Assembly (NCBI GenBank): GCA_964519135.1
Contig: CAZFJT010000001.1
Coordinates: forward strand, 1 to 27,098
From: an uncultured Syntrophales bacterium
GTDB lineage: Bacteria; Desulfobacterota; Desulfomonilia; Desulfomonilales; Desulfomonilaceae
DNA: 27,098 bases
Reading direction: 5' to 3'
This document shows, piece by piece, positions 5,859 through 21,322 of the stretch; the stretch's first letter is position 1, and every line of letters begins with the position of its first letter. Under the pieces are notes generated by a model that saw nothing but the letters and a program-made list of their open reading frames with translations, was not told where the DNA came from and searched no databases. A program made the translations under genes and the position numbers.

Positions 5859-6101
5859 TCATAATTTCTTAATATGTAATTACTCACTGTGGCCCCATTA
5901 GTTTTCGGAATCGAATCCGGGAATTTTGAATGGGCAGATGTGTTTGCGCTTGTTCCGTACGGGCCCAGAACCGTTTCAATAAGAGTAAATTATAATATTT
6001 TTACTGTTTTTCGAAATATAATGTCACTTGAAATCCGGCCAGGGTTGGGCCCTCCCCATGGATATTGTTAATTACCATGAAGAGGGGTGTACGGATGAAG
6101 T

Positions 6102-6269
6102 TTAATTCCCTGGATCGTACGCTGCGGATCCTGAGTCAACGCAGTCTGAAAGCTCTTCAGGGCTGGCGTTCTTGGGGTCTTTCAGTTGACTCATGTGACA
6201 GATGAATTCGTTTCCCTCTCTGTCTTTTACCCATACCAACGGATCAGAAGGTGTTGTTGCTTCAGCCAT
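6102..6269 (-). CDS. Small acidic hypothetical protein, 55 aa (not in ORF track)
   Basis: Translated by hand: MAEATTPSDPLVWVKDREGNEFICHMSQLKDPKNASPEELSDCVDSGSAAYDPGN*. AAAGGAGAT SD upstream of ATG 6269; TAA at 6102-6104. Confidence 0.75.
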   Translation of the reverse strand: MAEATTPSDPLVWVKDREGNEFICHMSQLKDPKNASPEELSDCVDSGSAAYDPGN

Positions 6270-6318
6270 TTTTAAATCTCCTTTTTTTTGCCAAATCTGA
6301 TCATAGGACCAGAGTTCG

Positions 6319-6337
6319 AGCGTAAAAATTTTACGCT
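6319..6337. promoter_or_regulatory. Palindrome, candidate operator
   Basis: AGCGTAAAA-A-TTTTACGCT (9-bp arms, 1-nt centre), 50 bp upstream of the 55-aa ORF. Confidence 0.35.
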
Positions 6338-6625
6338 GTAAAATTACCAGGGGATTCAGTTTTTGAGATCTATTTTCTCTAAGAGTTTATCTCACATGAA
6401 TGGAATATCCCCCCCAATACCAATATAGAGCCCAGGTTCCATATAAAACCGGGATTCCGGACATCTATATTACAAAACATTATAAACACTGGAATTGCAG
6501 AGGTAAGAGTGTGTCAGGAGAATTAATTGACTGATAATTATGTATATTTCAAGAATAACTAGATTTAAAGTCTGTAAAAAAATATGAAAACCTGGTCTGG
6601 AGGCCGGTGGTTCCGTATTTACGGG

Positions 6626-6907
6626 TCAGTATCTTCCCAGGATATGATCAATGAGCGTATTGGACATTTCCATGAAAATGGCCCTGTATCCACCGGGCCA
6701 GGTGTGTCTTATGGGTGGAGGAGGGACATAGCCGTAATAAATTTGTGATTGATCTTTTACTTGAGGTTGAGTTTTGTGTATGGGCGCCCTGGGAGAATAA
6801 TCGGGCGCGGTAGAGCCCGCCCAGGCCGGAGACCAGGAACAAATAAAAATGAAACATAATATAGTGACAATGCTTCTTATTACTGGTATTGTTGTCTTTT
6901 CTCTCAT
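6626..6907 (-). CDS. Secreted hypothetical protein, 93 aa
   Basis: GAGGT SD; basic n-region, hydrophobic h-region and AWA-G signal peptidase site; YYGYVPPPP motif. Confidence 0.7.
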   Translation of the reverse strand: MREKTTIPVIRSIVTILCFIFICSWSPAWAGSTAPDYSPRAPIHKTQPQVKDQSQIYYGYVPPPPIRHTWPGGYRAIFMEMSNTLIDHILGRY

Positions 6908-7219
6908 TTCTACCTCAGCTAGATATTTTATCCACTTTCCAAGATAAAATCAATTAAAATGGTTTCAAGATTTACTAAGGCCGACAAATAGCGCCCGAAA
7001 ACCGCGTGAGTAAAAATCACGCCTTTTGCTTAAACCGCGAGTGGTTTTCGCTCGCGACGACTGTTTATAAGCTTCTGATATTTAAATGAAATAAAGAGAT
7101 GGGCCATATGCATTTAGCCATGGTTGGAAATAACGCATTTTTCAGGCTTGCCATAAAACAGTCCACAGAAATATAATTAATAATATTAGGTTGATACAAT
7201 GCGCAGCAGTCATTATTAG

Positions 7220-7236
7220 TGGGCACGAATATTGCA
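7220..7236 (+). promoter_or_regulatory. Sigma54 (-24/-12) promoter
   Basis: TGGGCACGAATATTGCA matches 16 of 17 positions of YTGGCACGRNNNTTGCW, with GG (7222-3) and GC (7234-5) exactly 10 nt apart. It faces the chemosensory cluster. Confidence 0.7.
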
Positions 7237-7730
7237 GGCGTTCGTCCTTATGCTAGTGCTATATTGAGATAGTCTCTTTTACTTGTACAAATCTTTGAAG
7301 GAGTTATTTTTAATGATGACCGTTAAATGATCATAAACGGTCGCGTGGGGCTTGAAATCTGAATCATACCAACATAACCAGGACTTTTTATCTTGATTTC
7401 CAGTGCTTGGCCATGATATGCTAGATTATCTCTAAAAGTCGTCAAGAGTAAACCACGCGATCATATACGCATGTTGTAGTAATAGAGATCTTGACACGTT
7501 GTAACGATTGTAAAACGGTATCAACAAAGACTTATAAGCCTCCGGAAGTATTTCATAAGTGCGTTAGGATTCCAGATTTGAATACGCCCTGATAAGCGTT
7601 GAATTTAAGTGGTCGGCCCAGCAAGATAAAGTGTTTTTTAAAAAGGCCTATGTATGAATCTTTGAAAAAAGGGCTTTTACTGTAAAAGGATCAATCAAGT
7701 AAACCTTGTCGGGTCCGGCGCGGGGAAGAA

Positions 7731-8069
7731 ATGGAAAAGGCGCCCCAAGAGGAACACAAAACTGAAGATCTATCCGAGGTCATGGACTTTTCCTCCTATG
7801 ATCTCAGGACAACTGTCCGTCTGGTAATTCATAGCGGTGAGTCCAGGCGTGTGGAAATTAGGCAAGGCAGTAAATGGGGCGCGATATATATAAAGGATGG
7901 GGAACTATATCGTGTAGAAACATCCGAATCAACAGGTGACGAGGCCTTCTTTGAGATACTGGGTTGGAAGAGGGCTTCCCATAATGACCGCATGCAAACT
8001 GAAATAATGGATAGAAACGTCAATATTTCAACTGACGTGTTTCTGGATCTTTTAAACAAGAACGCTTAG
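7731..8069 (+). CDS. Stand-alone DUF4388 (PatA-N-like) domain protein
   Basis: Pattern GAIYIKDGELYRVE...GDEAFFEILGW parallels the DUF4388 segment of the next gene (GLIYVNEGGIVHAE...GVEAFYEIVGW). Confidence 0.7.
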   Translation: MEKAPQEEHKTEDLSEVMDFSSYDLRTTVRLVIHSGESRRVEIRQGSKWGAIYIKDGELYRVETSESTGDEAFFEILGWKRASHNDRMQTEIMDRNVNISTDVFLDLLNKNA

Positions 8070-8213
8070 GGACGCGGAGCATTTTGGGGCCATAATACTA
8101 TTATATGTTAAGTTCCCTTGAAAATATTTAGCAGCCTGCTTTTATAGGTCGCAAGACTTATTCTTGCAGGGTCTGGTGATTTATATCTGAACTTATAGCT
8201 CTGGGAGAGTCCT

Positions 8214-10001
8214 TTGCCTGAACGTAGGATTCTAATATTGGAACAAGGCGCCAAGCTTGGTCACACCATAAAAAGCAGGTTGGAGACCAAAGGGGCCGCG
8301 TTTAGCTTTACTGAAGCCAGCTCAGTGGAAGAGGCTGAAGGCATTGTCTTTAACGAAAAAATCCACATGATTGTTGCCAACCACGACCCAAAGCAAGGAT
8401 TAAACGCCATTGATTTGATAAAAAAGATCAGAGCCAAGCAATCCACAACACATACCGTGGTCATTACCGATAAGGAATATGAAGCCGACCGGAGGGAAGC
8501 ATTATCATACGGATGTTCAGCCTATTTAACGCGACCACTGGCTGATGTTAAGCTTGGGGAATTTGTGTACAACACCCTCTCCAGGCACCAGGGATTCAGG
8601 GGCCGCGTTGTGGATATGCGGCTTGAAGATGTCATTCAAATGTTTTGCTACCGAAAGGACAGCACCCTTTTATCTGTAGTGAATGAAGAAGACAAGGGTC
8701 TGATATATGTAAATGAAGGCGGCATAGTGCATGCTGAAACAGGGGATCTTAGAGGGGTTGAGGCTTTTTATGAAATTGTTGGATGGGAGGCTGGAGAATT
8801 TCTTTCCCAAGTAACCCTGGAAGTGCCTACCCAAACGGTTTACATGGATTGGCAAAGCCTACTGATGGAGGGTATGCGTCAAAAGGACGAAATAAGGCAC
8901 GCATTGGGGCCTTACCCACAAGAGCAAGCATCCCCCCGCGCATCGTCAGCGCCAGCCGCGGGTCGAATAAAATCCAAGAAGATAATGGTTGTGGATGATT
9001 CCAGATTCATTAGAAAGATAGTTCAGGAAATACTAGAATCCGATGAGGCTCTTACAGTGGTAGGATACGCTACCAACGGCCAAGAGGCCCTGGAAAAGAT
9101 CGATGAACTCAAGCCGGATCTCATACTGCTTGATTGGGATATGCCGGTTATGAAAGGCTCCACCACACTGATGCACATAATGATAAGAAGCCCCTGTCCA
9201 GTGGTAGTTCTCAGCGGATTCGTCGGAGGAGTGGGCGCGAATCCTTTTGATTTATTGTGCCTCGGCGCGGTGGACTTTTTGAGAAAACCACAGAACAACT
9301 GGAGAAGGGACGGCAGGGCCAATGACCTTGTGCAAAGGGTTAGGGAAGCCTGTGGAATACATTTTGAGAGAATAAGGCGGGTCAGAATACCCTCCCTTCT
9401 ACCAGAAGACGAACGAGGCCGGGTATCAGGCGCCACAAGCCCATTTTTGGCTGTCATGGGCTCATCAATCGGAGGCTGTTCAGATTTGATACGAATAATT
9501 CCTTCATTAAGTCCTGGTTTAAACGCATCCATAGTTGCTCTCCATGACATGCAGGAGCAGGCTATCGGCGCGTTTGTGGATTATCTGAACAGAAGGTCCA
9601 GGACCCCGGTAAAACAGGTTGAATCAGGTGAACGTCTTATTCAGGGTGTCTGTTACATTCATCCGGCCACTATCCCCTTGGAAGCCCAAAGGGAGAATGG
9701 CCACGTCATACTCAAGGTAATAGCGGATATGCCTGAAACCAATGTCATGGATCATTTTCTTATTTCAGCGTCCAAGGTAATGGGACCCTCCATATTGGGA
9801 ATGCTTCTCTCAGGGGGGCCGGAGGAAAGGGGCGCGGATGGGCTAAGGGCCGTAAAGCAAGCCGAGGGCATTACCGCGATACAGGATCCGGATTCCAGCA
9901 TAGACCCAAGAATGGCCTCAAAAGCGGCGCTAACCGGTGTTGTTGATCACACATGGCCCGCTGACCTTGTGGCTAGATCTTTGGAAAAAATAATTGATTA
10001 A
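8214..10001 (+). CDS. Pseudo-receiver / DUF4388 / receiver / CheB-like esterase fusion, probably catalytically dead
   Basis: aa ~1-122: degenerate REC (LEQ, N56, TRP). aa ~127-227: DUF4388. aa ~255-380: intact REC (VVDDS, D307, KP). aa ~410-595: CheB fold (GSSIGG, LHDMQ, LSGGPEERGADG, QDPDSS). TTG start with GGGAG SD. Confidence 0.85.
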   Translation: MPERRILILEQGAKLGHTIKSRLETKGAAFSFTEASSVEEAEGIVFNEKIHMIVANHDPKQGLNAIDLIKKIRAKQSTTHTVVITDKEYEADRREALSYGCSAYLTRPLADVKLGEFVYNTLSRHQGFRGRVVDMRLEDVIQMFCYRKDSTLLSVVNEEDKGLIYVNEGGIVHAETGDLRGVEAFYEIVGWEAGEFLSQVTLEVPTQTVYMDWQSLLMEGMRQKDEIRHALGPYPQEQASPRASSAPAAGRIKSKKIMVVDDSRFIRKIVQEILESDEALTVVGYATNGQEALEKIDELKPDLILLDWDMPVMKGSTTLMHIMIRSPCPVVVLSGFVGGVGANPFDLLCLGAVDFLRKPQNNWRRDGRANDLVQRVREACGIHFERIRRVRIPSLLPEDERGRVSGATSPFLAVMGSSIGGCSDLIRIIPSLSPGLNASIVALHDMQEQAIGAFVDYLNRRSRTPVKQVESGERLIQGVCYIHPATIPLEAQRENGHVILKVIADMPETNVMDHFLISASKVMGPSILGMLLSGGPEERGADGLRAVKQAEGITAIQDPDSSIDPRMASKAALTGVVDHTWPADLVARSLEKIID

Positions 10002-10051: not shown

Positions 10052-10594
10052 ATGAACGGCAATAATAACCCCCAACTAGGCTCAGGAGATGTTGCTGAAA
10101 TTGCGCAAATGATAAGTTTCTCCATCGGCTCTGAGCAATTCGGCCTAAATATCTTGATGGTTAAGGAAATCATCATGATCCCGGAAATTACGGAGATCCC
10201 GAACTCTCCTGATTTTGTGGAGGGGGTTATTAATCTGCGCGGTGAGATAATGCCTGTTCTGGATCTCAGGAAGAGATTAAGGCTCAGGGGTGTGCAGACC
10301 GAAGCCAAAAGGGGCCCGGGCAACCGTATTCTGGTTGTGGAAATAGAAGGCAACATTACTGGTTTTATAGTGGATTCAGTATCAAAGGTCCTTTCAGTTC
10401 CTATGAACAAGGTATTTCCACCTCCGGACATAATAGTTGGAGGTGTCCAGAGCCAGTACATCAGCGGAGTGGTGCACTTGGACGACAGAATTCTAGTTAT
10501 TCTGGATTTTGGAAAGATTCTTTCCCATGATGAGAAAGATGTGCTGGAAAGGGTTCCCAGACTAGCGCCTGAACAGGTGGGCGGCGCGTTGTAA
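10052..10594 (+). CDS. cheW: Chemotaxis coupling protein CheW
   Basis: ITEIPNSPDFVEGVINLRGEIMPVLDLRKRL; GFIVDSVSKV. Confidence 0.95.
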   Translation: MNGNNNPQLGSGDVAEIAQMISFSIGSEQFGLNILMVKEIIMIPEITEIPNSPDFVEGVINLRGEIMPVLDLRKRLRLRGVQTEAKRGPGNRILVVEIEGNITGFIVDSVSKVLSVPMNKVFPPPDIIVGGVQSQYISGVVHLDDRILVILDFGKILSHDEKDVLERVPRLAPEQVGGAL

Positions 10595-10702
10595 ATATAC
10601 GTAGCAATTATAGTATACAGGTGAATCAGTGAACCAAACAGGAAAACATGCGGTTAGTCCGCTAGCAATCTATACTTTCGACGAATCCCAGGAGGAATGG
10701 CA

Positions 10703-13129
10703 ATGGCGTTCTCATTTAAGAACATCTTCGGAAGAATAGGGTTCGGTAGAACTCTTAGGAACAAGCTCCTTGTAGCTTTTCTCTTACTCTCACTAATCCC
10801 TTTTGGAATCGCCGCTTATATGGCGTACTATTACATCCAGGACGTTGCCGAGAATCAGGCGTACAGTCAGATGCAGCGTATGTCCCAGGACGCTTTGCAC
10901 ACTGCGAACGTTTATATGAACGAACGTGTGGCTGACCAGTTGGTGTGGTCTGAGCTCAGGGTTGTCAAGGAAGCCCTTGATGTTGCAGAGGTAAGGGAGG
11001 ACGCCACTGAAACCCTGAAAGAGCTCGTCAAGTACTATGGTTCCTATGAAGCTATTATGGTGCTCAATAATAAGGGCACGTGCGTTGTGTCGAGCTGGCC
11101 TGGATTCGTTGGTCAGAGCTTCGGTAAAGACCCTCTTTTTAGGGGTCCAACAAAGGGGCAAAACTATGTAAGTGGGTTCCAGGTAGATAAAAGGATCAGG
11201 AAGATCAACCCAAAGGGTCAAGGTTTTACACTTGTCTTCTCAGTTCCCATTAAGATTGGAGGCAAGGTATCAGGTGTTGTGGCCTCCTTCTTTAAATGGT
11301 CGGCCCTTACGGAGATCCTTGACGAATTTAGACTGGGAAAGACCGGCCACGTTGGTGTTATTAATAAAGACTTGAAATATATTTATTATCCTAGAGATAT
11401 CGATCCTGGTCTTCTCTTAAAAACAGTTGGATCTAAAGGCCGTACAGCACTCCGAGACGCCATTAGGAACAAGCAGCACTCTTTTACTTATTCCAGGAAA
11501 GATCCTAAAACGGGGGTTCCAACTACAAGAATCGCTGATATTGAGTACGCGACTACAAAATACAAGAACTTTCCGGCCACAGGATGGTTCGTTTACGCTT
11601 CCGCGGATAGATCTCAGATTCTCTCCGCCCTACCTGGGGTTATTCGAAACCTTGCAATAGTCGCGGCGGTTATTTTGGCCTTGGTTGTTATAGCCACATT
11701 CTTCATCGCTGGAACCATTTCCCGGCCAATCACAGGTTTGGCCAATGTTATGGCCCAGGTTGACGAAAACTTGGATCTTACAATCAGGGCGCCTGTGACC
11801 ACACAGGATGAAACCGGTCAGACAGCCGAGACGTTCAACCGTCTTCTGGAGAACTTCCAGAATTCATTTACGTCGGTTCTTGATGCGGTTGTCAGGGTCC
11901 GGGAGTCTTCTTCTGAGGTTAATGAGGTTACCCAAAGGATCGTTGTTAACGCGACAGCCCAGTCAGAGCGTGCAAGGAACGTGCTCGACAGGGTCGGCGC
12001 GATGGGTGAAACAGCCCAGGAGGTCTCTTCAAACGCTCAGGAGACCCAGAGAGCAGCGTCCGACACGGATGAACGCATGAGGATAACCACCTCTAATATT
12101 GAAAGTGTCGCTGAAAGGTCAAGGGTCCAGCTTGAGCATTCCACTGAAACAGCAAATATTATCGATCAAATGGGTGAAACAGCCAGGGCGGTTGCTGAAA
12201 GGGCCAATGACCAGGCCGAGGCCGCCCGTGTTACAACTGAAGCCGTTTCCCGTATTGCCCAGGAAATTCAGGAAGTGGCCAGAGGCGCGGATGAAGCGAA
12301 TCAGCAATCGGCTCTCACCGACCGTTTTGCCCGTGAGGGTGGAGAGGCCGTCGACCAGGTGGTTGGCGGTATGAGGAGTATCGCTGAAGCGTCTGAACAG
12401 ATCAACGAAATCATGGACGTTATTTCGTCAATTGCCGAGCAAACGAACTTGCTGGCCTTGAACGCAGCTATTGAGGCGGCAAGGGCCGGTGAACACGGTA
12501 AAGGTTTTGCGGTTGTTGCGGACGAAGTTAGAAAGCTCGCTGAGAGAACCGCTGAATCAACCAACGAGATTGGAGAGCTCATTCGAGAAAGTAACCGACG
12601 TGTTGAGGAAGGAGAACGACTGTCCGCGATGAGCCGTGACGCTCTTACCCAAATTCAGGACGGTGTTGTGAAGACCAATGAGCTCATCTCCAGTATTACC
12701 GAGGGAACGGTCAGGCAAACCCAGGAAATTGGCGATGTGCAGAGGGCCATGGACAGGATGACACAGCTTGCCCAGGAAATTCTCAAGCTTACGGATGAGC
12801 AGGCCAGCAGAAGGGTCCAGGCCGCTGAATCTATGACCACGGTGCGTGAGGAGGCCATGACGGTTACCCAATCCGCTGAACAAGAGGTTGTTACAGCGGC
12901 GGCGGTTGCCGAATCCATGATCGGGGTTACAGAGCGAGCCGAAAATATCGCTAAACTCACTGGATTGCAGACTGAGCGTTCAGCGATTCTCAGACAGATT
13001 ATGGCTGAAATGTCCGAAACAGCGGCCGCTAACGCAGAGGGCGCAGCAGGGGCTTCTGATACTACATTGAAACTTGCTAATGTTGCTGAAGAGCTCGCCC
13101 AGCTCGTTGAGCAATTCAAAATTCAGTAG
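10703..13129 (+). CDS. Methyl-accepting chemotaxis-family receptor: TM-dCache-like-TM-HAMP-extended signalling domain
   Basis: Two TM helices and HAMP ([13 protein letters not shown]); tip [44 protein letters not shown] is 7 nt before ATG 10703. Residue numbers elsewhere count from the track start 10697. Confidence 0.95.
12002..12184 (+). repeat. Exact 15-bp repeat within the MCP, 168 nt (8 heptads) apart
   Basis: ATGGGTGAAACAGCC at 12002-12016 and 12170-12184 (MGETA twice). Confidence 0.85.
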
Positions 13130-13186: not shown

Positions 13187-13546
13187 ATGGGCGTGAGGGT
13201 CCTAGTGGTTGATGATTCTGGTTTTATGAGGAAACGGGTTTGTGAGCAACTTGAAGCTCAAGGTCACTCCGTGATCGGAGAGGCCAAGGGTGGAAATGAA
13301 GCTGTTGAAATGTTCAAGACGCTCAAACCCGACCTTATAACCATGGATATTACCATGCGTGATAAAGATGGAATCACAGCGGCAAAAGAGATTATGGAAT
13401 TGGATCCTCAGGCCAAAATCCTTTTTCTGACCATACTCAAGGATGAGAAATATAAAGCCGAAGCAAAAGATATAGGCGCCATCGGTTTTTTGAACAAAAC
13501 CGATCAGAACTCTATTGCAGAGGTTCTTAAGGGTTTAGACATATAG
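13187..13546 (+). CDS. cheY: Single-domain response regulator, CheY-like
   Basis: VVDDSGFMR, PDLITMD(54)ITM, FLT and LNK; GAGGTG SD; lies in a che cluster. Confidence 0.88.
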   Translation: MGVRVLVVDDSGFMRKRVCEQLEAQGHSVIGEAKGGNEAVEMFKTLKPDLITMDITMRDKDGITAAKEIMELDPQAKILFLTILKDEKYKAEAKDIGAIGFLNKTDQNSIAEVLKGLDI

Positions 13547-13780: not shown

Positions 13781-14542
13781 ATGGCCCCAAATCAAAGCGC
13801 CACTAGGGATGTAAGAGGTTCAAACGCTTTGTCTTCGAACAGGAGAGAAGGGAGCGCCAATGGACGCGCCTCAGTCTTGTTCCAAAAATCCTGGGCGCAT
13901 AAGTTAATTCCGATTGCATTGGCTCTTGCGGCAATAGTGGCCATCGGAATCACAACAAAGGTGGTCTGGGACCTTAACTTGAAGGGTCAGGCGTACCGAG
14001 GTATTTCGGCCTCCAAATCAGTTGAGCCGGGAACAAACACAGAACACATAGTAGCAGCGCCCATAGTAAATGGAATAGGAGTATACCAAAAAGCATTGGG
14101 GTCTTTTAGGCGAGGCCTGTATCTGATAATGGCCACAATCGCGATATCTTTTATAAGTATTCTGGCGCTCTTTATAAGCAAATTCGTTGTTCCCTTGAAC
14201 ACCATATCTAATGTGGTCCGGACAATGGCCGACGGAGATCTTACAATATCCGCGCCTGAAAAACTGCCTGATGACATGAGGTCTTTAGGCAAAGGATTGA
14301 ATGATTTGGCGGCCAACTTTCAGGAAGTCTTGCTTTTTACCGGAACCATGTGTGGAAACTTAAAATCTGAACTGGCTGCGCTGGAAGCTGATTTGTCAAG
14401 TGAAAACAGCACACTTGACCCGGAACAAATAAAAGCCGAGATTGCCGGACTTAGATCTGAGATAGAAATACTCTCTGAAATGGTTGAACAGTTCAAATAT
14501 TATCAGGTGGAATTTGATGGCAGTGAAGTTAAACCCAAATGA
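13781..14542 (+). CDS. Two-TM HAMP protein, MCP-like but without the signalling hairpin
   Basis: TM1, short loop, TM2, HAMP (PLNTISNVVRTMADGDLT...DDMRSLGKGLNDL), short coiled coil ending LSEMVEQFK like the MCP's LAQLVEQFK. Confidence 0.8.
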   Translation: MAPNQSATRDVRGSNALSSNRREGSANGRASVLFQKSWAHKLIPIALALAAIVAIGITTKVVWDLNLKGQAYRGISASKSVEPGTNTEHIVAAPIVNGIGVYQKALGSFRRGLYLIMATIAISFISILALFISKFVVPLNTISNVVRTMADGDLTISAPEKLPDDMRSLGKGLNDLAANFQEVLLFTGTMCGNLKSELAALEADLSSENSTLDPEQIKAEIAGLRSEIEILSEMVEQFKYYQVEFDGSEVKPK

Positions 14543-18226: not shown

Positions 18227-19000
18227 ATGGGCCAGCTTGTAGCAATAATCAGCCAAAAAGGGGGGGTTGGGAAGACTTCAACTGCCGTAAATCTTGGCGC
18301 GTGCCTCTCGGCGCTAAAAAGACGGGTTTTACTGGTTGGTATGGATCCTCAATGTGGCCTGGCGCAAAGCTTTGGGCTGGAGATTTCTTCCGATTCCGAT
18401 GGCATGTTCAGCGCGATTAAAGGGAATGCGCGCATGGATCATATCATTCATCAGACGAATCCTAGATTACCAAGATTGGATATGGCGGCGTGCAATATCT
18501 CATCCGCGGCTCAGGAGATAGAGTATTTAAACATACTTCAGGCGAATCCATCAATGCTGGCCGAGCTTCTCAATGATATGCGGCCACACTATGATTATAT
18601 CTTCATAGATTGCCCCCCAAGATTGGACAGTCCGACTCAGTCTGCGTTGATAGCCGCTGACTCCTATTTGGTTCCCGTCCAATGCGAATACGCCTCAGTA
18701 GGCACAGTGGGAGCGGTGTTGAGATCAGCGCTGGAAGTGAAAAGACTAAAAAATCCCGGACTCGGCATTTTCGGATTTCTGATCACAATGGCTGACAAAA
18801 GGGCCTCTTTTACATACGGCGTCATTAAGGAGATAAGGCAATATCTTAAGGAAAGGGTTTTTAAAACAATTATTCCCCGCGATCCTAAATTGGCTGAGGT
18901 CCCTGTTAGGCAATCTCCCATAATTGCTTACGACAAGAATGCTGTCGGCGCCAGGGCCTACATACAATTGGCGCGGGAAATCCTCAGTAAATCTAGTTAA
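18227..19000 (+). CDS. ParA/Soj-family ATPase within the chemosensory cluster
   Basis: Deviant Walker A KGGVGKT, MDPQ, Walker B YDYIFIDCPP, VPVQCE and IIPR. Confidence 0.92.
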   Translation: MGQLVAIISQKGGVGKTSTAVNLGACLSALKRRVLLVGMDPQCGLAQSFGLEISSDSDGMFSAIKGNARMDHIIHQTNPRLPRLDMAACNISSAAQEIEYLNILQANPSMLAELLNDMRPHYDYIFIDCPPRLDSPTQSALIAADSYLVPVQCEYASVGTVGAVLRSALEVKRLKNPGLGIFGFLITMADKRASFTYGVIKEIRQYLKERVFKTIIPRDPKLAEVPVRQSPIIAYDKNAVGARAYIQLAREILSKSS

Positions 19001-19184: not shown

Positions 19185-20249
19185 ATGGATGATATTTCAA
19201 ACAATAAACGGGTTCGAGTTCTTGTGGTGGACGATTCCGCTCTCATGCGTAAGCAGATAAGCTCGATTTTGGAATCAGACTCTCAATTGAGTGTTGTGGG
19301 GGACGCAAAAGATGGTGAAGACGCTTTGGCCAAGATTGGGGAACTCAAACCTGATGTTGTTACATTAGATGTTGAAATGCCCCGCATGAACGGCATAACC
19401 GCCTTGAAACACATAATGTTGAAGCACGCCATTCCCACGGTAATGATTAGCGCTCTAACAAGCGAGGGATCAAAGACCACTTTTGACGCTTTGAGATACG
19501 GAGCGGTCGAGGTTATCTCAAAACCCTCCAGGCGAGATACCGATAGTTTGGAAGCCCAGAGTAAGGACATAATTTCCAAGGTAAAAAGGGCGGCCGTAAT
19601 AAGAACCGGAAGGCTTAAGTATGTTAGAGTCGCTGGGGACGAGGCTATGAAGTCCGCTGAAAACATGACGCCCGCTGATAATGATACTGCGGTAGTGGGA
19701 ATGGTTACCGGAACAGGCGGTTATTATACTCTGTTAAGAATCATTCCGGCCTTGGCCCCTGATTTCAGTGGAGTCATAGTTGCTGTGATGAATATAAGAT
19801 CCAAATATGTAGAGCCATTTATCACATATTTGCAAGCCCATAGCAGGGCGCCTGTCCAGACGGTGAAAGGCATGGCCTCTCCAAAACAAGGTTGCTGCTA
19901 TGTATGCGCGTCAGAGGATCTGCCGGTAATTGAGAAATCCAATGACAGCGCCCTAAGAATAAGGCTGGAAGGGCCATCGGATCACCCTTTAAACCCAGGC
20001 CCATTGGATCGTTTTTTAATGTCCCTGTCTTTTGCATTGGTTGAAAAATCTGTTGGAATAATCTTAACAGGCGCTGGAAAGGACGGAGCTGAAGGACTCG
20101 CCAGCATTCGTCACGCTGGAGGAATCGCGGCGATACAGGATATCAACAACTGCGCGGACCCATCCATGCCGTTGGCCTGCCTTGAAAAGGGCACAGTGGA
20201 CAGGATAATACCTGATTATGAATTGGCTGATTTCATTAATAGCGTTTAG
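19185..20249 (+). CDS. cheB: CheB-like response regulator (REC + esterase fold) lacking the catalytic Ser and His
   Basis: REC: VVDDSALMR, D62 (LDVEMP), SKP. Esterase fold: VTGTGG, VMNIR, ILTGAGKDGAEG. Confidence 0.88.
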   Translation: MDDISNNKRVRVLVVDDSALMRKQISSILESDSQLSVVGDAKDGEDALAKIGELKPDVVTLDVEMPRMNGITALKHIMLKHAIPTVMISALTSEGSKTTFDALRYGAVEVISKPSRRDTDSLEAQSKDIISKVKRAAVIRTGRLKYVRVAGDEAMKSAENMTPADNDTAVVGMVTGTGGYYTLLRIIPALAPDFSGVIVAVMNIRSKYVEPFITYLQAHSRAPVQTVKGMASPKQGCCYVCASEDLPVIEKSNDSALRIRLEGPSDHPLNPGPLDRFLMSLSFALVEKSVGIILTGAGKDGAEGLASIRHAGGIAAIQDINNCADPSMPLACLEKGTVDRIIPDYELADFINSV

Positions 20250-20581: not shown

Positions 20582-21322
20582 CTATTGTTTTATAGAGTAA
20601 GGGAATTCAAGGCCTGGATTATGTTTCCCATGAATTTTCTTAATCTTTTTTATGTCATCTTTGAAGGCGCCCCATTCCTTATTGATCCAAACAGCTTTTG
20701 ATTGAAAAATTTCCGCCATGGTTTCCATCATTACCGTTAAATTTACGAAAACAGGTCTTATTACAGTATCTTCCGTGAAATAGACCAGAACAGGCGCTGC
20801 ATTTTGCTCTTTGCTTTCACAATCCACAAAATAGTATTCATCCTGGAATTGAAACACAGGGAACCATGCTTTGCGCCAGCCTGAAAGTAATCTTGTATCC
20901 ACTAAGGTTTTATACTCTGAGATGGCGCGATCAAGCGTCAAAAAATCATGGTACCAAATAAATGGAACATTGGAGGCCGGGTCGCATCCATTGTAAAGGT
21001 TGTACAAATCTATCAGCTCCTTTGGCGGGCGTAGCCCCAGACCAAGGAACTTCTCTTTTATCAAGCTTTCACTGAGACCCGGTTGAAGGGATTTTGCCAC
21101 TTCCGGCGCATTATTGTCATGCCATTGTTTGATCAGGACAATGGACTCCGACAATCTTTTAGTATCATACGCGTTATCAGCGGCTACCATAAGCGTCTTA
21201 TCAGCGCCGGGCCATTTTATCATGCGCTCTTTTTTGCAACCTTGCGAGGTGATACAAATCGCCCCAATCACTAAAAATAGCGGGAATAAATCTAAACCGA
21301 TCCTATGGGAAAATGATCTCAA
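20582..21322 (-). CDS. SMI1/KNR4 (SUKH) family protein with putative lipoprotein signal
   Basis: LQPGLSESLI...LGLRPPKELIDLYNLYNG and WFPV...YYFVDC patterns; hydrophobic stretch followed by TSQG-C. Confidence 0.75.
   Translation of the reverse strand: MRSFSHRIGLDLFPLFLVIGAICITSQGCKKERMIKWPGADKTLMVAADNAYDTKRLSESIVLIKQWHDNNAPEVAKSLQPGLSESLIKEKFLGLGLRPPKELIDLYNLYNGCDPASNVPFIWYHDFLTLDRAISEYKTLVDTRLLSGWRKAWFPVFQFQDEYYFVDCESKEQNAAPVLVYFTEDTVIRPVFVNLTVMMETMAEIFQSKAVWINKEWGAFKDDIKKIKKIHGKHNPGLEFPYSIKQ

Follow-up and report, generated by a model that had tools for sequence, protein, structure and literature searches.

The DNA considered here (the window) is a stretch of 27,098 nucleotides (nt) from an uncultured Syntrophales bacterium assigned by GTDB to the Desulfomonilaceae (contig CAZFJT010000001.1 of assembly GCA_964519135.1). 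At positions 8214 to 10001 of the forward strand, within a set of chemosensory genes, it encodes a protein of 595 amino acids (aa) that joins two receiver domains, a PATAN domain (also called DUF4388) and a domain derived from CheB, the textbook adaptation enzyme of bacterial chemotaxis. The protein has neither the catalytic triad of CheB nor a score that reaches the curated cutoffs for CheB, and its architecture is not that of PatA-type regulators. It appears to be best described as a PATAN-fused, CheB-derived pseudo-esterase response regulator. The open reading frame (ORF) is genuine. It runs from a TTG start to a TAA stop, an in-frame stop codon 15 nt 5' of the TTG rules out a longer reading, and homologues of the protein share its start point. 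The ribosome-binding site and the parts of the product are as follows.

8203..8207, + strand: ribosome-binding site GGGAG, 6 nt ahead of the TTG
8223..8582, + strand: apparent N-terminal pseudo-receiver, residues 4-123, with E10/Q11, N56 and R107
8595..8906, + strand: PATAN/DUF4388 domain, residues 128-231, delimited by Pfam and the structural model
8907..8975, + strand: variable inter-lobe linker, residues 232-254, low in predicted local distance difference test (pLDDT) and in identity
8976..9353, + strand: intact CheB-type receiver (REC2), residues 255-380, with D261, D262, D307 (9132-9134), S334 and K358
9438..9998, + strand: CheB-like alpha/beta domain with an apparently remodelled triad, residues 409-595
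9465..9467, + strand: S418, counterpart of the nucleophile Ser164
9483..9485, + strand: D424, family-specific, in the first turn of the helix following S418
9543..9554, + strand: H444-D445-M446-Q447, in place of QHMP
9660..9662, + strand: H483, family-specific, at the end of strand 480-484
9810..9833, + strand: S533-G540 (SGGPEERG), in place of TGMGNDG, including E537, E538 and R539

A preliminary description of this DNA, made from the letters alone, had proposed the four-domain fusion, and Pfam matches together with the receiver fold of residues 4-123 in a structural model bear it out. Pfam recognizes Response_reg twice in the 595-aa protein (the better match at residues 257-361), DUF4388/PATAN (PF14332) at 130-227 (61.4 bits, cutoff 25, E = 1e-16) and CheB_methylest (PF01339) at 414-589 (97.8 bits, cutoff 24). 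When residues 1-128 are scanned alone, they match Response_reg with 34.8 bits (cutoff 30.2, E = 2e-8), and in the AlphaFold2 model, residues 4-123 form a regular (beta-alpha)5 fold. The model as a whole (pLDDT 88.1, predicted template modelling score 0.73) consists of two lobes joined by a linker, of which residues 236-251 have pLDDT below 50 and are read as disordered. Every residue singled out in the preliminary description (E10, Q11, N56, R107, D307, S418, H444, D445, M446, E537, E538 and R539) stands at the position given for it.

In the protein database, the window protein has no fewer than 113 homologues of full length, with 45-77% identity to it and all carrying the same three Pfam families; those with names come from Desulfomonile tiedjei or from metagenome-assembled genomes (MAGs) of Desulfomonilaceae or Thermodesulfobacteriota. 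One GTDB-wide scan gave 39 species-level loci of the Desulfomonilaceae type. The family statistics below refer to an alignment of 110 homologues, and the numbers of changes are minimum counts on a neighbour-joining tree. Mean identity to the window protein differs greatly by domain: it is 84% in REC2, 70% in PATAN and 51% in the CheB-like domain, and it falls to 28% in the N-terminal receiver and 16% in the linker (232-254). Public databases annotate the family as 'chemotaxis protein CheB / protein-glutamate methylesterase', an annotation that, to judge from the residues discussed next, probably misdescribes what these proteins do.

The resemblance to CheB is extensive at the level of the fold. 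Residues 255-592 are collinear with full-length CheB (positions 4-351 of the 357 in NCBIfam model NF001965; HMMER E = 3e-27), and the combination of receiver and CheB_methylest fold that characterizes CheB is present, as judged by Pfam (PF00072 and PF01339) and by Foldseek. Foldseek superposes residues ~256-590 of the model on full-length CheB (1A2O) with a template modelling score (TM) of 0.82 over 351 columns and the CheB-like domain on the catalytic domain of Thermotoga maritima CheB (3SFT) with a TM of 0.91. The glycines G420, G421, G534, G540 and G543 are all kept, and REC2 is predicted from the model to pack on the CheB-like domain as it does in inactive CheB. The scores against the curated NCBIfam models lie well under the cutoffs for CheB, 196.4 bits versus 293 for NF001965 and 169.3 versus 342 for NF009206.

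It is at the active site that the protein parts company with CheB. Where CheB has Ser164, His190 and Asp286, the window protein reads S418, D445 and R539, a correspondence on which three methods of alignment agree: pairwise HMMER against Salmonella CheB (1A2O), L-INS-i with 145 diverse CheB domains, and hhalign, in which the profile of the family was compared with that of 101 triad-intact CheB domains (probability 100%). All three place H444 opposite Gln189. A fourth alignment, made with MAFFT, used a reference CheB sequence that has S164, H190 and D286 at the expected positions and agrees with fragments of 1A2O; it puts H444 at His190 and makes D445 a one-residue insertion. Since R539 falls at Asp286 in all four, that residue is lost in every one of them, just as the preliminary description had it. 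Its assignment of D445 to the histidine position holds in three of the four and fails in the MAFFT run, which leaves D445 the favoured occupant of position 190 in these alignments. E537 and E538 were considered as a substitute acid and rejected, as only 4 of the 110 sequences have the former, an insertion, and the column of the latter is unconstrained (D in 39, G in 24, E in 17, and others).

The loss of the canonical triad is a feature of the whole family, as the 110-member alignment, the hhalign comparison and the tree counts all indicate. Serine occupies the nucleophile column in 84 of the 110 sequences (76%), the remainder having F (11), A (8) or G (7), and some members lack serine at both 417 and 418. 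The claim that the esterase keeps S418 is thus true of the window protein but does not extend to those 26 orthologues. The column has changed independently at least 14 times on the tree. The column equivalent to Asp286 is occupied by R, G, Q, W or K, and columns 538 and 539 have each undergone at least 40 changes. Not so the residues around them. In the HDMQ motif, H444, M446 and Q447 are found in 110 of 110 sequences and D445 in 109, while D424 is found in 109 and H483 in all 110. On the tree, H444, Q447 and H483 have not changed at all, and D424 and D445 have changed once each. These are not the residues of canonical CheB, which has Ala170 in place of D424, Gln189 in place of H444, His190 in place of D445, Pro192 in place of Q447 and Ala228 in place of H483; Y457, C480, P488 and A568 are further conserved residues peculiar to the family. 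Because HDMQ, D424 and H483 scarcely vary while the triad columns do, the site looks remodelled rather than decayed: from its pattern of conservation, it appears to have been rebuilt under strong selection, with the classical triad released from it.

One might object that the triad was not lost but rewired, and that the protein is a working methylesterase or deamidase in which S418 remains the nucleophile, H444, one residue out of register, acts as the base, D445 or D424 supplies the acid, and PATAN merely localises the enzyme. The invariance of H444, and its position opposite His190 in the MAFFT run, would fit such an enzyme, as would the near-invariance of D424 and D445 (both close in sequence to the nucleophile elbow), the serine of the window protein and of most orthologues, and the retention of the CheB fold and CheB-type regulation. 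Against it, the 26 orthologues that do without the serine, after at least 14 independent losses, sit in the same conserved module as those that have it, position 190 is Asp rather than His in three of four alignments, and the protein scores below the NCBIfam cutoff for CheB. Together with evidence from the gene neighbourhood and from more distant relatives, considered below, this makes a rewired esterase improbable.

A different possibility is that the new residues constitute a metal- or ligand-binding site, or a catalytic site of another kind, built of D424, H444, D445, Q447 and H483 with C422 and C480 nearby, so that the CheB-like domain would act as a sensor or as some other enzyme. Five polar residues unlike those of canonical CheB and invariant or nearly so invite such a proposal. 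Their locations invite it as well: in the model, strands 412-417, 439-444 and 480-484 carry family-specific residues at their C-terminal ends and helix 422-431 carries them in its first turn, and in alpha/beta folds, the C-terminal edge of the strands is where active sites lie. In addition, the clade of the CheB-like domain is tight and isolated; of 1.84 billion representatives, just 5 match it at E < 1e-30, and the next match is at 5e-20. The convergence of the residues is, however, conjectural, the cysteines are not invariant (C422 in 79 of 110, C480 in 91%), no known motif is matched, and relatives from Desulfobacterales do without the HDMQ and H483 signature. A site of this sort is given as little chance as the rewired esterase.

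The two receivers differ in their phosphorylation sites. In the pocket of the first, E10/Q11 replace the usual DD, N56 (8379-8381) stands at the position of the phosphorylated Asp, and R107 stands for the conserved Lys, all of which supports the earlier view that this domain is probably not phosphorylated; because N56 occupies the acceptor position, the receiver of the window protein should be unable to accept a phosphoryl group. Across the family, 52 sequences have D in the acceptor column and 22 have E; the others have N, V, A or H, and the column has changed no fewer than 38 times on the tree. Ala stands in the Thr/Ser column of 87 of the 110 sequences, and the pocket's second acidic residue is not conserved. 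Judged by these columns, the N-terminal domain appears to be a pseudo-receiver throughout the family, its phosphorylation site drifting freely. REC2, described at the outset as intact on the strength of D307, is so without exception: D261, D262, D307, S334 and K358 are invariant in all 110 homologues. Taken alone, REC2 finds its best receiver match in the PDB in that of CheB (3T8Y), not in CheY.

That REC2 is by far the most conserved domain raises the question whether it is the only one that matters. Perhaps the protein is a phosphate sink or kinase competitor, which drains phosphoryl groups from CheA to tune CheY, and the other three domains are relics. Phosphate-sink receivers are established in systems with multiple CheY proteins, and the module has three phosphorylatable receivers, those of REC2, CheY and a second CheB-like protein. 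Relics, however, would not be so well maintained. Identity in the PATAN domain averages 70% over the family (34 of the 104 columns are conserved to 95% or more), the CheB-like domain keeps family-specific residues that have not changed on the tree, and the four-domain layout persists from Desulfomonilaceae to Desulfobacterales. The chance that the protein is only a sink is accordingly small, a little under that of a rewired esterase.

PATAN (128-231) lies directly N-terminal to a phosphorylatable receiver (255-380), separated from it by the linker (232-254). Its match to the profile is compact, 98 residues spread across 122 profile positions. Searched by sequence against the PDB, the PATAN segment gives nothing below E = 0.39, and Foldseek with a model of PATAN alone (pLDDT 88.9) gives no match at E <= 0.001, the best TM being 0.42. 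The gene just upstream encodes a small stand-alone PATAN protein, a distant paralogue of the regulator's own PATAN domain (33% identity over 48 aa). This small gene is present in all 39 loci of the Desulfomonilaceae type.

The regulator is the product of the second of nine genes, all on the same strand, that make up the module.

7731..8069, + strand: gene 1, small stand-alone PATAN protein, 112 aa
8214..10001, + strand: gene 2, pseudo-receiver/PATAN/receiver/CheB-like regulator
10052..10594, + strand: gene 3, CheW
10697..13129, + strand: gene 4, dCache-HAMP-MCP chemoreceptor (MCP, methyl-accepting chemotaxis protein)
13187..13546, + strand: gene 5, single-domain CheY
13781..14542, + strand: gene 6, HAMP protein without an MCP signalling domain, 253 aa
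14689..18102, + strand: gene 7, CheA, 1137 aa, with Hpt, insert, dimerisation, HATPase and CheW-like parts
18227..19000, + strand: gene 8, ParA/MinD-like P-loop ATPase
19185..20249, + strand: gene 9, second receiver-CheB-like protein, 354 aa

The same nine genes in the same order are found in D. tiedjei DSM 6799, and as far as the contigs extend, each of the 39 Desulfomonilaceae-type loci keeps that order. Because the flanks vary among genomes while the order holds, the module can be regarded as self-contained.

What the module does not contain is a CheR. No CheR domain was found in ORFs of at least 100 aa in the window, nor within 10 kb in four Pfam-annotated loci (L001, L002, L006, L007). 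The chemoreceptor (10697..13129) shows neither a strict methylation consensus nor a C-terminal pentapeptide, and the pathway may be one without methylation-based adaptation. Both the missing CheR and the missing motifs speak against a rewired methylesterase. In the second CheB-like protein, the receiver is intact and the remnant of the triad is different: Gly at Ser164, Asn/Met at His190, with Asp286 kept. The change of Ser to Gly and the lack of His190 are common to 25 of 25 orthologues, and the score of 246 bits falls below the NCBIfam CheB cutoff of 293. From these residues, this protein too looks like a pseudo-esterase.

Several features of the other module genes may be recorded. CheA, which at 1137 aa is unusually long, has ~600 residues between Hpt (1-100) and the dimerisation domain (from 706), with an HHH_5 match at 362-415, and the long insert is also present in the D. 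tiedjei orthologue. In the HAMP protein (13781..14542), two hydrophobic stretches look transmembrane-like and a C-terminal stretch coiled-coil-like by eye; its position in the module is kept while its sequence diverges fast (23-36% identity between species). The ParA/MinD-like ATPase, kept in the modules of both Desulfomonilaceae and Desulfobacterales, recalls the array-positioning ATPases ParC and PpfA.

As for its surroundings, the module is preceded by 1.9 kb (5859-7730, GC ~41%) that separate it from a lipoate-protein ligase gene and hold no ORF of at least 100 aa. Scans of this interval with Rfam (at the gathering threshold and with E up to 1) and for repeats, promoters and terminators gave nothing above chance. 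The interval does hold a 93-aa ORF (6626-6907, - strand), whose N-terminus resembles a signal peptide by eye, and an 11/12 match to a sigma-70-like promoter at 7148-7177. Just downstream of the module is a gene for a SUKH/SMI1_KNR4-family protein (20582-21322, - strand), adjoined by a 101-aa ORF without a family match.

Short contigs from a 2017 marine metatranscriptome (run X9) match several module genes with at least 99% identity between window positions 7963 and 17924, the CheB-like part of the 8214-10001 gene among them. This is modest evidence that the module is transcribed. Four 2025 runs from one study also contain the entire region, at ~17x depth.

The four-domain architecture is found outside the family as well. 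MAGs of Desulfobacterales and one genome of Desulfococcaceae encode proteins with the same order of receiver, PATAN, receiver and CheB-like domain at 28-32% identity (examples are P0179, P0129/P0269 and P0156, at loci L002, L047, L048, L055 and L057), and the architecture, judged by its occurrence, appears to be older than the protein family described here. The triads of these relatives are also degenerate, but differently so (A-Y-D, G-R-G and similar) and clearly dead, a further argument against a rewired esterase. Their N-terminal receivers, unlike those of the family, are canonical (DD, D, T, K), and they are without the signature of HDMQ, D424 and H483. Their genes keep the same company (a dCache MCP, CheW, CheY, CheA and a ParA-like protein, with no CheR), together with one or two extra genes for receiver-CheB-like proteins, all lacking His190, but the order of genes is different and the small upstream PATAN gene is absent. 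Short homologues (P0114-P0120) that might have passed for receiver-CheB or receiver-PATAN-receiver variants of the architecture were rejected, as they are contig-end fragments or frameshifted pieces.

What might such a protein do? In Synechocystis, PATAN is a binding partner of PilB1 and PilC, proteins of the type IV pilus, and it serves PatA-type regulators as their output domain (bioRxiv 10.1101/2021.06.11.447907), in keeping with the link to type IV pilus motors drawn in the preliminary description. Elsewhere, PATAN proteins have been linked with S-motility (SgnC), and their genes are neighbours of mglA/mglB. In the loci examined, no pil or flagellar gene was found within 10 kb of the module, nor was mglA or mglB. 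Desulfomonile strains in culture lack motility and possess an invagination resembling a collar (PMC7773648), and flagellar output is therefore unlikely. By analogy, candidate outputs are type IV pili, positioning of the array by the ParA-like ATPase, and polarity or division, none of them backed by linkage.

On balance, the protein is probably a composite output regulator of a self-contained, CheR-less chemosensory module of Desulfomonilaceae, in which it would act as a phosphorylation-gated, non-catalytic adaptor. According to this model, the CheA of the module would phosphorylate D307, as the operon and the invariant phosphorylation site suggest. The receiver of CheB blocks the active site until it is phosphorylated, and phosphorylation of D307 would similarly loosen the packing of REC2 over the face that was once the active site, if the two-domain packing of the model is a guide. 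An invariant polar cluster (D424, H444, D445, Q447 and H483) has replaced the triad on that face, and it would serve as a phosphorylation-gated binding site in lieu of an esterase, its partner being most plausibly the ancestral one, the chemoreceptor. Meanwhile, the PATAN lobe would bind a downstream machine, either the motor of type IV pili (PilB/PilC) or a factor for polarity or positioning, as cyanobacterial PatA-type proteins might lead one to expect. Localisation or surface motility, rather than receptor demethylation, would then be coupled to the activity of the kinase. An output adaptor for the signal from CheA had been proposed at the start. The operon with CheW, MCP, CheY and CheA and the invariant phosphorylation site sustain the part that concerns CheA, while for the output, no effector is linked to the module at any locus examined.

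Several considerations weigh against this adaptor. The window protein itself has both S418 and an adjacent invariant His, which the MAFFT alignment keeps at position 190, and it may possess residual or rewired hydrolysis. The geometry of S418, D424, H444, D445 and H483, judged from positions within predicted secondary structure, and their cover by REC2 are suppositions, and AlphaFold, trained on 1A2O, may be echoing the packing of CheB. CheR could be encoded elsewhere in the genome. The absence of a module-linked effector gene leaves the target of PATAN as pure analogy, and the metatranscriptomic signal is thin and could include DNA.

A bolder account can be offered, though only tentatively, as it is on the whole unlikely. 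The module may represent a distinct pathway of Thermodesulfobacteriota, in which CheB has twice been turned into a non-catalytic, phosphorylation-gated binder and adaptation by methylation has been abandoned. The His/Asp pocket of the PATAN-fused copy would, upon phosphorylation of D307, bind a receptor or ligand and so bridge the array to a machine bound by PATAN. Candidates for that machine are the type IV pilus motor, the ParA-like ATPase, and an apparatus of polar growth or division at the collar of Desulfomonile.

A conserved, transcribed lineage in which both CheB paralogues of a pathway have kept the phospho-switch and lost the canonical triad, CheR being missing from the neighbourhood, would offer a plain natural example of a signalling enzyme becoming a pseudo-enzyme scaffold. 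The fusion to PATAN brings together two fields that have been studied separately, the proteins of methylation-type adaptation and the PatA-type outputs to pilus and polarity, and it provides a concrete protein with which to ask what PATAN binds outside of cyanobacteria. Also, because its cultured relatives are non-motile, the module is a candidate for a chemosensory pathway with an output other than motility. A CheR-less module of this type is undescribed in the open-access literature searched, where no description was found of this architecture or of natural CheB pseudo-enzymes either.

CheB pseudo-enzymes need not be rare in sequence space for all that, since ~30% of the 145 nearest CheB-domain representatives carry triads other than Ser-His-Asp in the L-INS-i alignment, and such proteins may be widespread. 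Non-canonical triads such as G-Y-D, S-Y-D and A-Y-D occur, for example, in P0125, P0131, P0134, P0136, P0138 and P0152, the last of these being a CheB-like domain fused to a Ser/Thr protein kinase. Pseudo-receivers likewise have precedents. The N-terminal domain of FrzS in Myxococcus xanthus, a protein tied to type IV pilus polarity, and the second receiver of PleD have the receiver fold without phospho-acceptor chemistry and serve as structural or docking modules. The likeness to them is one of fold, with no further relationship in sequence, and the N-terminal receiver of the family differs in being weakly constrained, about half of the orthologues keeping the acceptor Asp.

Among the systems closest to the regulator, CheB itself (Salmonella 1A2O and 1CHD, T. 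maritima 3SFT and 3T8Y) shares with it collinearity, fold and the phosphorylation site of the receiver. The regulator differs from CheB in that His190 has become Asp, Asp286 has become Arg or is variable, Ser164 is dispensable within the family, D424, H444, Q447 and H483 are new invariants, 250 aa of pseudo-receiver and PATAN have been added at the N-terminus, and the module is without CheR. The PatA-type regulators (PixG, PixE, TaxP1 and PilG of Synechocystis, PatA of Anabaena) are bipartite, PATAN plus receiver, and here there are four domains, a receiver of the CheB type and a compact PATAN match, in a host that is a non-phototrophic sulfate reducer and with no pilus gene linked to the module in the loci examined. 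With those regulators, however, the protein shares a PATAN domain placed N-terminal to a receiver by way of a flexible linker, and with their genes it shares a che-like operon that includes a single-domain CheY, CheW, MCP and CheA.

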